A stretch of DNA of 64,000 nt from an uncultured Bacilli bacterium (GTDB lineage Bacteria > Bacillota_I > Bacilli_A > RF39 > UBA660): assembly GCA_963931685.1 (NCBI GenBank), contig OZ007038.1, positions 975,632 to 1,039,631 of the forward strand, read 5' to 3'. This document shows, one piece after another, positions 28,317 through 37,699 of the stretch. The notes under the pieces were generated by a model. It saw only the letters and a program-made list of their open reading frames with translations. It was not told the origin of the DNA and made no database searches. Made by a program: the position numbers and the translations under genes. How positions within the stretch are numbered: the first letter of the stretch is position 1; every line of letters starts with the position of its first letter.

Positions 28317-31300
28317 TTAATTTGTAATAACATAAGGGTTACCAGAACTTCCATCACCTGTTAAGATGGTATCAGATGTTAGATATAGAGTTGGGGAAAC
28401 GCTGAGATAAAGAGACACGTATTCGTTGCTAAGCCTGCCGGCACTACTAGTATCGCCGGACACATAGAAGACCAAATAACTGGTACTGGCGTCAGGCGAA
28501 ATAGTCCATAAATAATTTTCCTGTGGAACAATATTATACATCCAATTTGTGGTTAAACATGTTGTATTATTTGTATTATTTAAACTATAATTTCCACATT
28601 GTTCTGTATTGGTATTTGCTCTTAAATATTCTGATGCAGTTATCATACCAATACTAGTAGCTTGAGACTGTTTTCCATTTTCTGAAATAATTTGGCCGGC
28701 TAAATCACTATTACCATATGTTACTCTACCTATACTCCAAGTATGAGGTACTATTTTATCTGCATTTGTAGTTATTGTTGGTAAATAAGTATCATTCAAA
28801 TATGTTTTTATATCTGATAGTTTCCATGCATTACTATTAGTTGCATCCCATATCTGATTTCCTATACTTTCGTTTCGAATTATTTTTATTGTATTATCTG
28901 CACCTATAGAAATTATTCTCCACATTTCATTATTAAAAGTTATATAGTTATTTGGATTGGCTCCTTTATATGTATATTTTCCTTCTTCATAAGTATCTTC
29001 ATATAATCCATCACCTTCAGAAACAACTAATTCTTTTAAATCTTCAGAAATTGTTCCTATTTTTACGCTATAACTGCTACTAAATGTATCTGTTCCTTTA
29101 GTAACTGTGGCGACTACTGAACCATTTGTTGTAAATTCGACAGCTACTGTTTGATTTGTTACATTTACTATTTTTTCATTATCCTTTTGATATGTGCATG
29201 TTAATGTACTTCCACATCCTTCTGGATAGTTAATATTTACCGTCTTTGGATTTGTTCCACTTTCAGAGAATGTTGGAATATATTTTGAATAATCTTCTAA
29301 CTGATATGGATTATTACTTGTTCCTTCTCCTCCAATTATTTTTATATTTGATTTTAAATATAATGAAGGTCTATAGTTATCAATTACATTAACAGAATTA
29401 CTATTAATCTGTCCAGATGCTTGAATGTTTCTTGAACTTGTTCCATTGCTTGCTGGAGAAAAAGTCCAATACTGTTTTCCTGTAAATAACCACGAGGTAC
29501 TTTTACATGTACTATAGTTCGTGTTTATTAAACTAAAATTTCCACATTTACTTGTATTAGTGTTTGATCTGATGTAATCACTAATATTTATTAAACCTAT
29601 TTTACCATTCCAAATAGTTCCATTTTCATCTGATATTTGTGTTCCTAAATTGGTGTTGTTCCATACTACTTCACCTATGCCAAAATTATGAGATGCAATT
29701 TGTGATTTTGCCGCACTTGTTAATGATGCATAATAATCTCCATTTAAATATGTATTAAGAGTTGCTGGTCTTGCCCAATTATTACTATTAGATGTATCCC
29801 AGGCTTTATTTGTTAAAATTTCGTTTCTAGTTATTTTTATTGAGCCATCTTTTTCTTTAGAAATTATTCTCCATAGTTCATCATTAAATTCTACATAATT
29901 ATTTGGGTTTGCTCCTTTATATACATATCTACCATCTTCATATGTATCTTCATATAAACCATCTCCAGTTGTTGTTATGTCATCTGTTATATCAATTCCT
30001 ACTTTTACATTATAACTACTACTTACTTCATTTGTTCCATCAGATGCTTTGGCTAGAAGTGTTCCATTATTAGTAAATTCTATGTCTACTGTTTTACTAG
30101 TTACTTCCATTTCTTCTCCATTATCTTTTTGGTATGTGCATGTTAATGTACTTCCACATCCTTCCGGATATGTGATTGTAACTGTTTTTGGTAATGTACC
30201 ACTTTCAGAGAATGTTGGTTTTTCTAGTTCTGGTAATGATACCCCATTTAAAATTTTGAATGGATCATCTGAAGTTCCACTTCCACTCAAAGTAGTATCA
30301 GATTTCAAAAAGACAACTGGGCGAGGAGCGACAGTACTATAGAGCGCACGAGCGTGGCGCACGCGCGCGTATGAACCACTAGCACTACCATACCAGGCGT
30401 AATGCGAACGACCACCAGACTCGTAAGAAGAAGCATTTATTGTCCAGTAATATAATGTACTTGCTCCTTTATCTAATAAGTAATTGCTATTACATTCATT
30501 AGTACCGTTATATGAAGTTGTGGCTGATGTACATAGTGGGTTTGTACTTGCTCTTAAGATATCTGATACGTTAGCTAGTCCTACATTTCCTGTCCATTGG
30601 TACATTTTCTCTCCTGCTATATTTTTTTCTATACTATCTGCTTCGGCTTCGCTTTCATTTAAATATTCTACTGCCCCTATATTAAATGGATGGCTTGTCA
30701 TTTGTCCTTTAGCTGTTTCATTTATATTATTTACATAGTAATCATCATTTAAATATATTTTGATACTTGAATCTTCGGTTACTGTTCCACTTTGTGATCC
30801 GCTAGGTGAAGAGAATGTTCCATCAACTGCTGCATATACTCCGCAGCTAGATGTATCAGCACAATAAGTAGAAGATGCTGTACGATTTTGATTGTCAAAG
30901 GCTCGGTCTGCTAAAACATCGTTTCTAATTATTTTATATGTTCCATCTGTTTCTTTAGCTATGATTCTCCATAGTTCATCATTAAACATTATATAGTTAT
31001 TTGGATTTTGGCCTCTATAAACATATCTACCTTCTTCATAAGCATCCTCATATAAGCCATCACCAGTAGTTGTAACATCATCTGTTATGTCTATTCCACT
31101 ACCAACTTGATCTTCAGCAGTTAATTCAGTTCCATTTGTTACCCTAACTTTGATATTATAATTTGTATCTGATTTTAAATTAGTAAATGTATAGACATTG
31201 TTATTTCCATTATCTATATAATTTCCATCATTTATTGAAAATTCATATTTACTTATTCCACTTTCATCATCGTGAGCGGCAACGACTACAGTAATTGAAT

Positions 31301-32099
31301 TTGAGGTTGTAGATGTTGATATATTATCTATAATTGGTGGAGTCGTATCTTTAGCTTTAAATATAGCATATAAAGTTATATCTGTATCTCCTACTGTTAA
31401 TTCTGTTAATACTTCTTTTGAATCTTTATCAGTATTCCATCCAGCAAAGTCATAGTTATCTTTTGTTCCAGTTTTAGTTAAGTCTACTGGTGTTCCAGTT
31501 ACTAAATATTCATTATTACTTGAACAGTCATTTCCTCCATTAGTGATGCAGTCATATGTTATTAAATGGGTATTTTCTGGAGGTGATGTTTCATCATTGT
31601 TTTGTCCATAATCAAAGTTTATTTCGACTTCACTTGAAGTTTCTTCCCCTTCATAGTTTGGATTATATTCTATTTTGACGTGTATTATTTTGATACTTTT
31701 TGATTTTAATATTTCTCCTTTGGTGTAACCTGTGAATGTTATATTAACAGCTTCACTATTTGAGTTTTCTAAGTTGGTTAATATATTATTTAATTTGGCA
31801 TCTATAGTTCCTTTATTTTCTATGGTGACGTCATATTCCATGGCATCACCTTTTTCATACAAATCTGCTTCCATTGAGGCTGTTAGAGCATCCCATTTAG
31901 GGGCGACTGTATTTTCGGCTGAACCTGTTGGGGTACCAGGGGTTACATTTGTTATTTCTATATCCCAATTACTTGTTACTTTAGAGGTTCCTGATATTTT
32001 AAGTTCTGTATTAAAGGCAGCATACCCTATTCCCATACAAAAAAGAATTCCTATTAAACTAAATATTACTATATTTCTTTTTTTCTTACTCCTATACAT
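28317..32099 (-). CDS. 1260-aa surface adhesin: GYAAF signal and TasA-like domain, InlB-B/Flg_new repeat, FN3-like domain, three DUF6273-like domains
   Basis: MGIGYAAFNTELKISGTSKVTSNWDI; YDFAGWNTD...ITLYAIF; DTTPP...YNIKVRVTN; three GxNPNNYxxFNxExWRII...xPxxxL...GxxxxPY units; PTFSESGTxPKT...CTYQKDN linker twice. Confidence 0.8.
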   Translation of the reverse strand: MYRSKKKRNIVIFSLIGILFCMGIGYAAFNTELKISGTSKVTSNWDIEITNVTPGTPTGSAENTVAPKWDALTASMEADLYEKGDAMEYDVTIENKGTIDAKLNNILTNLENSNSEAVNITFTGYTKGEILKSKSIKIIHVKIEYNPNYEGEETSSEVEINFDYGQNNDETSPPENTHLITYDCITNGGNDCSSNNEYLVTGTPVDLTKTGTKDNYDFAGWNTDKDSKEVLTELTVGDTDITLYAIFKAKDTTPPIIDNISTSTTSNSITVVVAAHDDESGISKYEFSINDGNYIDNGNNNVYTFTNLKSDTNYNIKVRVTNGTELTAEDQVGSGIDITDDVTTTGDGLYEDAYEEGRYVYRGQNPNNYIMFNDELWRIIAKETDGTYKIIRNDVLADRAFDNQNRTASSTYCADTSSCGVYAAVDGTFSSPSGSQSGTVTEDSSIKIYLNDDYYVNNINETAKGQMTSHPFNIGAVEYLNESEAEADSIEKNIAGEKMYQWTGNVGLANVSDILRASTNPLCTSATTSYNGTNECNSNYLLDKGASTLYYWTINASSYESGGRSHYAWYGSASGSYARVRHARALYSTVAPRPVVFLKSDTTLSGSGTSDDPFKILNGVSLPELEKPTFSESGTLPKTVTITYPEGCGSTLTCTYQKDNGEEMEVTSKTVDIEFTNNGTLLAKASDGTNEVSSSYNVKVGIDITDDITTTGDGLYEDTYEDGRYVYKGANPNNYVEFNDELWRIISKEKDGSIKITRNEILTNKAWDTSNSNNWARPATLNTYLNGDYYASLTSAAKSQIASHNFGIGEVVWNNTNLGTQISDENGTIWNGKIGLINISDYIRSNTNTSKCGNFSLINTNYSTCKSTSWLFTGKQYWTFSPASNGTSSRNIQASGQINSNSVNVIDNYRPSLYLKSNIKIIGGEGTSNNPYQLEDYSKYIPTFSESGTNPKTVNINYPEGCGSTLTCTYQKDNEKIVNVTNQTVAVEFTTNGSVVATVTKGTDTFSSSYSVKIGTISEDLKELVVSEGDGLYEDTYEEGKYTYKGANPNNYITFNNEMWRIISIGADNTIKIIRNESIGNQIWDATNSNAWKLSDIKTYLNDTYLPTITTNADKIVPHTWSIGRVTYGNSDLAGQIISENGKQSQATSIGMITASEYLRANTNTEQCGNYSLNNTNNTTCLTTNWMYNIVPQENYLWTISPDASTSYLVFYVSGDTSSAGRLSNEYVSLYLSVSPTLYLTSDTILTGDGSSGNPYVITN
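28385..28510 (-). other. Putative DGR variable region in the third domain
   Basis: 28401-28500 hand count: 50% GC, 19% coding-strand A; mostly NNC/NNT codons between WTISP and PTLYL. Confidence 0.6.
30310..30435 (-). other. Putative DGR variable region in the first domain
   Basis: 30321-30420 hand count: 60% GC, 11% coding-strand A; NNY codons with interspersed TCG/TGG/GCG/GTG between YWTIN and RPVVFL. Confidence 0.65.
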
Positions 32100-37582: not shown

Positions 37583-37699
37583 TTAGGTACCTGATATTTT
37601 AAGTTCTGTATTAAAAGCGGCATATCCTATTGCCATACAAAATAAAATTCCTATTAAACTAAATATTACTATATTTCTTTTCTTTTTGCTTCTATGCAT
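37583..37699 (-). pseudogene. Truncated 5' stub of a paralog of the 1260-aa adhesin
   Basis: MHRSKKKRNIVIFSLIGILFCMAIGYAAFNTELKISGT* (38 aa), 36 of 38 identical to the adhesin N-terminus; ends just before the IS256-like end. Confidence 0.85.

Follow-up and report, generated by a model that had tools for sequence, protein, structure and literature searches.

The gene of a 1260-aa surface protein, located on the minus strand at 28317..32099 of the window (the whole 64-kb stretch of DNA that was analysed, corresponding to C1:975632-1039631 of a single-contig genome of 1.54 Mb with 27.7% GC), contains in an internal position a GC-rich and adenine-poor segment, VR1, which in this strain is probably an orphan and frozen DGR variable region (VR) in a module-shuffled target. 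It is very likely that VR1 was historically written by a DGR. In the original prediction, the segment had been regarded as either an active internal target or a variable region frozen after domain accretion; of this, the DGR origin and the frozen state are upheld and the activity is not, as there is no cognate template, 21 non-adenine mismatches separate VR1 from the resident template TR-A, and the DGRs of the genome are disrupted.

The composition of the segment is as unusual as had been claimed. The 114 nt of coding sequence that had been quoted are found as an exact match on the minus strand inside 30310-30435, and these 126 nt, which had been described as the most GC-rich stretch of the window with 11% coding adenine, are with 56.3% GC indeed the top 126-mer of the window, about 5.3 SD above the mean of the window (27.7%, SD 5.4%). 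With 11.1% adenine on the coding strand, compared with a mean of 40.8% in the ORF, they are also the lowest-adenine 126-mer of ORF 28317-32099. VR1 ends at residue 594 (CCA, 30318-30320), and the stop codon follows about 2.0 kb downstream, in agreement with the predicted distance. The runner-up in GC content within the window, 28382-28507 (48% GC, 19% A), is the equivalent segment in the C-terminal module of the same ORF. The rise in GC at VR1 extends over only about 125 nt and the flanks are of ordinary composition. Coding-strand adenine amounts to 11% in VR1 as well as in VR-A, the VR of a DGR elsewhere in the genome, and since VR1 is as adenine-poor as VR-A, it shows no compositional decay, which points to either recent writing or selection.

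The N-terminus of the protein (P0001) is a membrane or signal anchor bearing a GYAAF motif. An Ig-like domain, a Flg_new repeat and an fn3-like domain come next, after which follow three homologous DUF6273-type modules in tandem, of about 250-290 aa each, that are separated by linker domains of about 85 aa. Module 1 (residues 334-622; 30234..31100, minus strand) is a DUF6273/C-lec-like binding module and harbours VR1, the DGR variable-region homologue (30317..30436, minus strand; GC 56-57%, A 11-13%). Linker domain 1 (residues 623-705; 29985..30233, minus strand; 'PELEKPTFSESGT..YPEGCG..TCTYQKDN') starts where the single-module paralogs have their stop codon, and the linker recurs between modules 2 and 3. 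Module 2 (approximately residues 706-945; 29265..29984, minus strand) is the best Pfam DUF6273 match of the three, and its VR-equivalent segment (29367-29486, minus strand; 33% GC, 38% A) is without DGR imprint. The C-terminal module 3 (residues 1017-1260; 28320..29051, minus strand) is 78% identical to the target of DGR-B and contains VR3 (28392..28511, minus strand; 48% GC, 19% A), an orphan C-terminal VR homologue of the DGR-B type. Module 1 is 39% identical to module 2 and 34% to module 3. The gene is surrounded by chromosomal genes with housekeeping functions (dnaE, a two-component system, an HTH protein, trmK, sigA, dnaG), and no RT or TR was found within the 64-kb window. A 38-codon fragment at 37583..37699 (minus strand) duplicates the N-terminus of the 1260-aa gene with 90% nucleotide identity and is a remnant of a paralog.

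The family assignment is based on sequence and on structure models. Against Pfam DUF6273 (PF19789), the whole protein reaches 27.7 bits, which is above the gathering score of 23.5; alone, module 2 reaches 22.1 bits and module 3 20.4 bits (same cut-off), and module 1 gives no match. The AlphaFold2 (AF2) model of module 1 (pLDDT 79, pTM 0.85) has its sole significant match in the PDB with 9qa6 (E 1.4e-6), an IgA protease of Thomasclavelia ramosa whose N-terminal domain is annotated as DUF6273, and its best matches in the BFVD are phage DUF6273 proteins (E 1.2e-6), although the TM-scores of the fold matches are modest (0.45); a PDB sequence-profile search with the module alignment gave no match. 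According to the literature, DUF6273 is a C-type-lectin-like domain targeted by DGRs, and its VR makes up a beta-hairpin on the surface (PMC10743442). The residues encoded by VR1 lie on the strands 234-241 and 244-251 of the model. VR1 thus probably codes for the hypervariable hairpin in module 1 of this three-module, C-type-lectin-like cell-surface protein.

The whole genome has three RVT_1 matches and contains two DGRs, both of which are broken by mobile elements, DGR-A in its TR and DGR-B in its RT. DGR-A (846.5-851.9 kb) comprises a 472-aa target with VR-A, the template TR-A, an Avd-like ORF and, downstream of the latter, an RT (RT-A) of 375 aa that is intact without stops, reaches 66 bits with RVT_1 and has a YQDD motif. 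TR-A is split by a 1.55-kb IS that is flanked by an 8-bp duplication (GGGGTTTG), and its 3' 94 nt still adjoin the spacer. If the IS is removed, VR-A and the reconstituted TR-A differ at 24 adenines and at only one other base, which lies outside the core, and as the two differ almost only at adenines, DGR-A is genuine and was active until recently. In DGR-B (1467.6-1474.7 kb), the target is 430 aa long, TR-B is intact and an Avd-like ORF is present, but a 3.4-kb insert with three tyrosine-recombinase-like genes interrupts the RT. The RTs of the two DGRs are 62-64% identical and their spacers are near-identical over about 38 nt. With such spacers, RT-A could be imagined to act on TR-B and thereby to service VR3; this was rejected because VR3 has non-adenine mismatches to TR-B. 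In a local alignment of 147 nt, VR3 and TR-B differ at 19 adenine sites, 16 other sites and 4 gaps, and by reading of the alignment about 9 of the 16 non-adenine mismatches lie inside the VR core, from which it follows that VR3 is not currently serviced.

The alignment of VR1 with TR-A extends from one end of the template to the other, and the pattern of differences is that of a DGR. All 14 AAY codons of TR-A are changed to non-AA codons in VR1, with the pyrimidine being kept at the third position in every case, and the 5' 25 nt differ at adenines only. By sequence comparison, the GC-rich 3' end of VR1 (GCTCCTCGCCCAG; 30317..30329, minus strand) takes the place of the IMH-like end of VR-A (GCTCCCCGCCCAG), with which it agrees in 12 of 13 bases. 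Over the full length there are, besides the adenine differences, the 21 non-adenine mismatches and a 3-nt indel. VR1 is in one family with VR-A and the VRs of six other paralogs, VR3 belonging to the DGR-B family, and compared with its sister VRs, VR1 differs at 55-72% of the A-templated columns and at 10-28% of the other columns (Fisher p from 1e-5 to 3e-9). In the 600 nt flanking VR1 and its sisters the divergence is 12-18%, which is near the level of the non-A columns. The concentration of differences in A-columns and the completely changed AAY codons constitute the signature of independent adenine mutagenesis and rule out a GC-rich donor or ordinary divergence. A convincing GC-rich hairpin or cruciform that could serve as a homing signal was found neither 3' of VR1 nor 3' of VR-A.

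It is hardly credible that the segment has nothing to do with a DGR and came with a GC-rich donor island or arose by selection for loops rich in Gly, Ser, Tyr and Arg. The encoded peptide is in fact rich in S, Y, G, R and A, and no TR matches VR1, but the GC-rich island is embedded in a domain with ordinary flanks that are 82-88% identical to those of the paralogs, its codons line up one by one with those of a TR/VR pair differing only at adenines, and all 14 AAY positions are hit, with the pyrimidines of the template preserved at the third codon positions. For the same reasons, the short extent of the island and its codon-by-codon alignment with the TR, horizontal transfer from a donor was rejected, and the scenario that had been set against the original prediction, namely that a GC-rich donor accounts for the whole domain, is excluded.

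In the genome, 23 DUF6273-type modules are found in 21 genes, and they are C-terminal single modules throughout, except for the three modules of the 1260-aa gene and for a module without imprint that is internal to a 930-aa protein. A GC-rich and A-poor VR-like segment is present in about 14 of the modules. Module 1 has seven single-module paralogs in the same genome with which it shares 72-82% protein identity. VR1 and the VRs of p225k, p972k/p1536k and the related protein P0002 share non-adenine states and the indel that are not found in TR-A, and as these are common to several paralogs, they point to a lost template variant ('TR-X'), presumably related to but distinct from TR-A. Next to p225k there is a truncated TR remnant, followed by the remnant of an IS end, which indicates that whole cassettes were once duplicated and have since decayed.

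A cognate template was searched for, as had been proposed, in an adenine-tolerant manner, by scanning the 1.54-Mb genome on both strands without gaps and counting mismatches only where the base of the candidate template was not A. The best non-self match to VR1 had 19 non-adenine mismatches and thus was not better than matches to shuffled VR1 (19-21), while VR-A as positive control recovered its TR with a single non-adenine mismatch. VR1 was also compared with a set of TRs obtained by a DNA search of 60 relatives and the own genome and by pattern scans of GTDB and the genus. There was no cognate TR among those from the DNA search of the 60 relatives and the own genome; a scan of the GTDB species representatives for the TR 5'-flank pattern gave 4 loci, none of them cognate; and a scan for the 3'-flank pattern in 65 genomes of the genus, which includes 'Firmicutes bacterium CAG:822' and Candidatus Coprosoma intestinipullorum, gave five loci outside the own genome, of which four have a TR-length stretch and one ends at the contig end, and again none is cognate. 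The best TR recovered from the genus has 16 non-adenine mismatches to VR1 in a full alignment, and IMG/VR contained no match to a cognate TR. A serviced VR has a template that differs from it essentially only at adenines, and in this genome VR1 has none. It is not serviced by TR-A, as one homing event would erase the 21 non-adenine differences and the indel. With the template missing from the genome and both DGRs disrupted, VR1 looks frozen in this strain.

VR1 could in principle still be an active internal target that is diversified in trans, be it by the machinery of DGR-A, by cross-use of TR-B, or by a DGR on a phage or plasmid that was not assembled. With RT-A and Avd-A both intact and the 3' part of TR-A still present, residual activity is conceivable, the two ends of VR1 match the ends of TR-A, and VR1 is fully depleted of adenines. 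Also remote and multiple DGR targets are known, including an ORF of three modules with three VRs (PMC3521204), a past mutagenesis at the internal position is indicated by the comparison with P0002, and a plasmid or phage with the cognate TR could be absent from a single-contig assembly. Nevertheless this explanation is unlikely, since homing from TR-A would have reset the non-adenine positions and the indel, the genome is without another template, TR-A is IS-split and TR-B is the template of another VR family, and the public full-length copies of the gene show no variant of VR1.

The exact 1260-aa protein is encoded on 6 public contigs, and VR1 is identical in all full-length copies. Also in the 90%-identity cluster of the protein there is no full-length member with a different VR1, and at the consensus level no DGR-type variant of VR1 was seen among the public copies; below that level, VR1 would likewise presumably not be diversifying at present. 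One of the contigs (L063) agrees with the genome over 9.8 kb at 100% identity, and in view of this the six may all derive from a single strain or study. A fragment from another sample (P0117 on contig L065) has 8 amino-acid changes in module 2 and an unchanged VR3, and its contig begins inside an IS of the kind that splits TR-A, which is inserted right after module 1. In the JGI metagenomes, a protein-pattern search for same-species orthologs gave only three loci, all of which are distant. In P0116, found on contig L064 and in 2 samples, the 5' part of the gene (100% identity) is joined to the VR, the stop codon, the 3' end and the downstream DNA of p1536k (likewise 100%), with an identical stretch of 60 nt as junction, and L064 may be a true recombinant or else a chimera of the short-read assembly.

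Such a hybrid of the 5' part of the 1260-aa gene and the 3' part of p1536k would be expected if the about 14 imprinted modules swapped VR cassettes through homologous recombination or gene conversion, in which case the frozen VRs would form an archive of binding specificities and VR1 would change by such swaps instead of retrohoming. The strongly conserved flanks around every VR are in line with this, and so are two features of P0002, namely the drop of identity at its VR from about 91% to about 78% and the position of a P0002-type gene at the rpsF locus, which in this genome is taken by a paralog with a single module. As a full account of VR1 the swapping is nevertheless improbable: L064, a contig assembled from short reads (k87), stops 178 nt past the gene and possibly is an assembly chimera, no swapped VR with both flanks retained was seen, and swapping can account for the movement of a VR but not for its writing.

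P0002 is informative also in another respect. This protein of 1046 aa, found in two ENA samples, has four parts in common with the 1260-aa protein, namely the N-terminal region, module 1, the linker and a second module, and its gene lies beside rpsF-ssb-rpsR, a locus that in this genome is occupied by a single-module paralog. The DNA identity of the two genes is about 91% upstream of the VR, 67-80% inside and about 78% downstream. Within the VR, 22 of 40 A-columns differ from VR1, as opposed to 9 of 81 other columns, and since the two thus differ mainly at A-columns, internal VRs of this family apparently have been mutagenised in place at some time. The alignment suggests that the VR was already internal in the common ancestor of P0002 and the 1260-aa gene and that at least one of the lineages was mutagenised later, which is plausible but unproven; the shift in identity may alternatively be due to a recombinational swap of the VR together with the downstream part. 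Of the original assumption that a frozen variable region was acquired by accretion, the frozen state therefore persists, whereas an acquisition in an already frozen condition is not fully right, as the A-column differences of P0002 suggest that mutagenesis took place once the VR was internal.

Related multi-module proteins have internal VR homologues of graded composition, from fresh ones with 56% GC and 13% A in P0002 and 47% and 16% in P0003 to decayed ones with 44% and 23% in P0011 and 40% and 25% in P0010. This series looks as would be expected for frozen VRs that drift towards the background of 28-32% GC, and VR1 is at the fresh end of it. Among about 35 VR sites of the family in genomes of the genus, only those of the 1260-aa gene and of P0002 are internal, and the remaining sites end 25-26 codons before the stop codon. 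For neither of the two internal VRs was a matching TR found among the genus VR sites.

For the history of VR1 the following order of events can be proposed. A template related to TR-A would have given rise to the VR1 sequence by adenine-specific mutagenic retrohoming, and recombination among the many paralogous target genes, that is module shuffling or accretion, would have brought the VR into its internal position. At least one round of mutagenesis may have followed when the VR was already internal, as the comparison with P0002 suggests. The cognate template would then have been lost and the resident DGRs disrupted, with VR1 being inherited from then on as ordinary coding sequence. A more specific picture, in which the heads of the protein were made by two DGR lineages (module 1 A-type, module 3 B-type), the internal head was mutagenised in place, and the about 14 unserviced VR cassettes are an archive that is reshuffled by recombination, is a tentative possibility that is rather doubted at present.

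The classical DGR of the Bordetella phage BPP-1 (mtd with its VR, TR, avd, brt) is active and has a C-terminal VR adjacent to the cassette. VR1 resembles that system in the way in which it presumably was written, with adenine-specific substitutions from an AAY-rich template into a C-lec fold, and in the GC-rich 3' end at the IMH position, but VR1 is internal, there is no evident GC-rich hairpin downstream, and no template is present. VRs that are remote from their DGR or orphan are known from multi-target DGRs, for example those of Treponema denticola and Bacteroides (surveys PMC3521204, PMC4891356). VR1 has in common with these the location far from the RT/TR cassette in a paralog of the cassette-adjacent target, as well as the substitutions at adenine sites and the conserved VR ends; it differs in that its non-adenine scaffold matches no template of the genome, and such accumulated non-A ('B') mutations, in the terms of these surveys, are the hallmark of a VR that has ceased to be serviced.

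Large surveys have found that VRs are typically C-terminal, perhaps so that the cis elements lie outside of the coding sequence (PMC8144416). One multi-module precedent comes from the DiGReF survey, in which the 3366-bp ORF MarpuDRAFT_1558 of Marichromatium purpuratum 984 has three tandem FGE-sulfatase modules with a VR in each (PMC3521204). Like the 1260-aa gene, it is one ORF with three tandem C-lec-type modules and two internal VR positions, but its three VRs are assigned to one DGR, whereas in the present case the modules are of the DUF6273 type, only modules 1 and 3 are imprinted, and these come from two DGR lineages with A-type and B-type templates, neither of which matches its template now. 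The gene with VR1 is thus a further case of a multi-module target and is set apart by the two DGR lineages, the unmatched VRs and the fact that both DGRs are broken. Another relevant class are the tentaclins, a group of phage proteins that are diversified by DGRs and whose VR lies in a DUF6273 domain at the N-terminus (PMC10743442). The similarity consists in a DUF6273 fold with the VR as surface beta-hairpin and in a VR that is not C-terminal but has Ig-like domains after it. Tentaclins are phage virion proteins with an N-terminal C-lec domain, followed by 1-4 Ig domains and a C-terminal anchoring Ig domain that has a consensus of its own, and P0001, which is chromosomal and has an N-terminal anchor, then Ig, Flg_new and fn3 domains, and only then the three C-lec modules, is outside of this class.

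The case implies that diversity made by a DGR outlives the retroelement, as about 14 imprinted modules persist in a 1.54-Mb genome of a gut Bacillota in which both DGRs are inactivated, and that, through module shuffling, one imprinted VR came to lie midway along an adhesin-like protein with three heads. With this gene, the rare class of VRs that are not C-terminal gains a DUF6273 member. The case also calls for caution in DGR surveys, as A-depleted GC-rich islands can be relics, and a match to a TR at the non-adenine positions is needed before a VR is called active. If it is true that the internal VR was mutagenised in place, the cis elements of retrohoming can work also when embedded in coding sequence, which, once confirmed, would bear on the proposed reason for the C-terminal placement of VRs (PMC8144416). 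If, moreover, the imprinted cassettes with their conserved flanks do represent an archive, it would be one that is reshuffled after the DGRs were knocked out by mobile elements.

The reverse transcriptase (RT) gene of DGR-B, the second DGR of this genome (C1:1470171-1474698, outside the window), is broken into pieces of 229 and 144 aa by a 3.4-kb insert with three consecutive tyrosine-recombinase-like ORFs of 356, 329 and 410 aa, and the template repeat (TR-B) and the Avd-like ORF are still intact. Next to the single-module paralog p225k there is a truncated TR copy, of which 43 nt of the 5' part are left (C1:225990-226215, outside the window), followed by short sequences similar to both IS ends. 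The TR 3' part, avd and RT are missing from this locus, so it is a decayed duplicate of a DGR cassette. A third type of imprinted segment resembling a variable region (VR), 'WWTISP...AAPRP', is found in two paralogs outside the window (C1:59738-59857 and 341704-341823), with 53-55% GC and 16-17% A, and no TR or RT matching these segments was seen anywhere in the genome.

Within the window, a 38-codon ORF on the minus strand (37583-37699) is a second copy of the N-terminal end of the 1260-aa gene (31985-32099), with 90% nucleotide identity, that then breaks off; it is the leftover of another family member. Two further paralogs carry identical VRs (C1:972549-973970, 1.7-3.1 kb to the left of where the window begins, and C1:1535296-1536747). 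The two genes differ at 49 aligned positions, and since nearly all of these differences fall in the 5' third while the VRs are identical, the comparison suggests that the 3' part was recently duplicated or converted between the genes, with no mutagenesis since. A hybrid of the 1260-aa gene and the paralog p1536k was encountered on a contig found in two samples (L064:8300-9326), with the crossover at window position ~30589-30648. As far as a 60-nt stretch common to p1536k, the contig matches the window gene with 100% identity, and from there on it is 100% identical to p1536k, covering the VR, the stop codon and the downstream DNA towards rpsF; the product of the hybrid gene is a single-module protein of 618 aa (P0116). 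This contig represents either a true recombination or inversion between inverted paralogs that are 530 kb apart, or a chimera of short-read assembly.

In Ca. Coprosoma intestinipullorum (DVFV01000135.1; L037, the same as L004/L019), a site ~170 nt downstream of a target gene has the 5' flank of a TR but a VR-like, adenine-depleted body, followed by a 3' flank of the VR type and a C-terminal coding remnant with stops. The site looks like a chimera formed by TR::VR recombination. The TR of an uncultured Bacilli MAG (CALVID010000013.1; L038/L047) has a VR-like, adenine-depleted 5' half, whereas its 3' half is AAY-rich as normal, which suggests a sequence transfer from VR to TR.

The IS that splits TR-A, the template repeat of DGR-A, is present in five copies in this genome, and in another sample the same IS interrupts the 1260-aa gene (L065:1-98, joined to window position ~30257; ENA ERZ16268051 scaffold_37696). 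The insertion point lies directly after module 1, at '..DDPF|KILNG', which is where the single-module paralogs end, and through this insertion VR1, the orphan VR in module 1, would become a near-C-terminal VR in a truncated protein.
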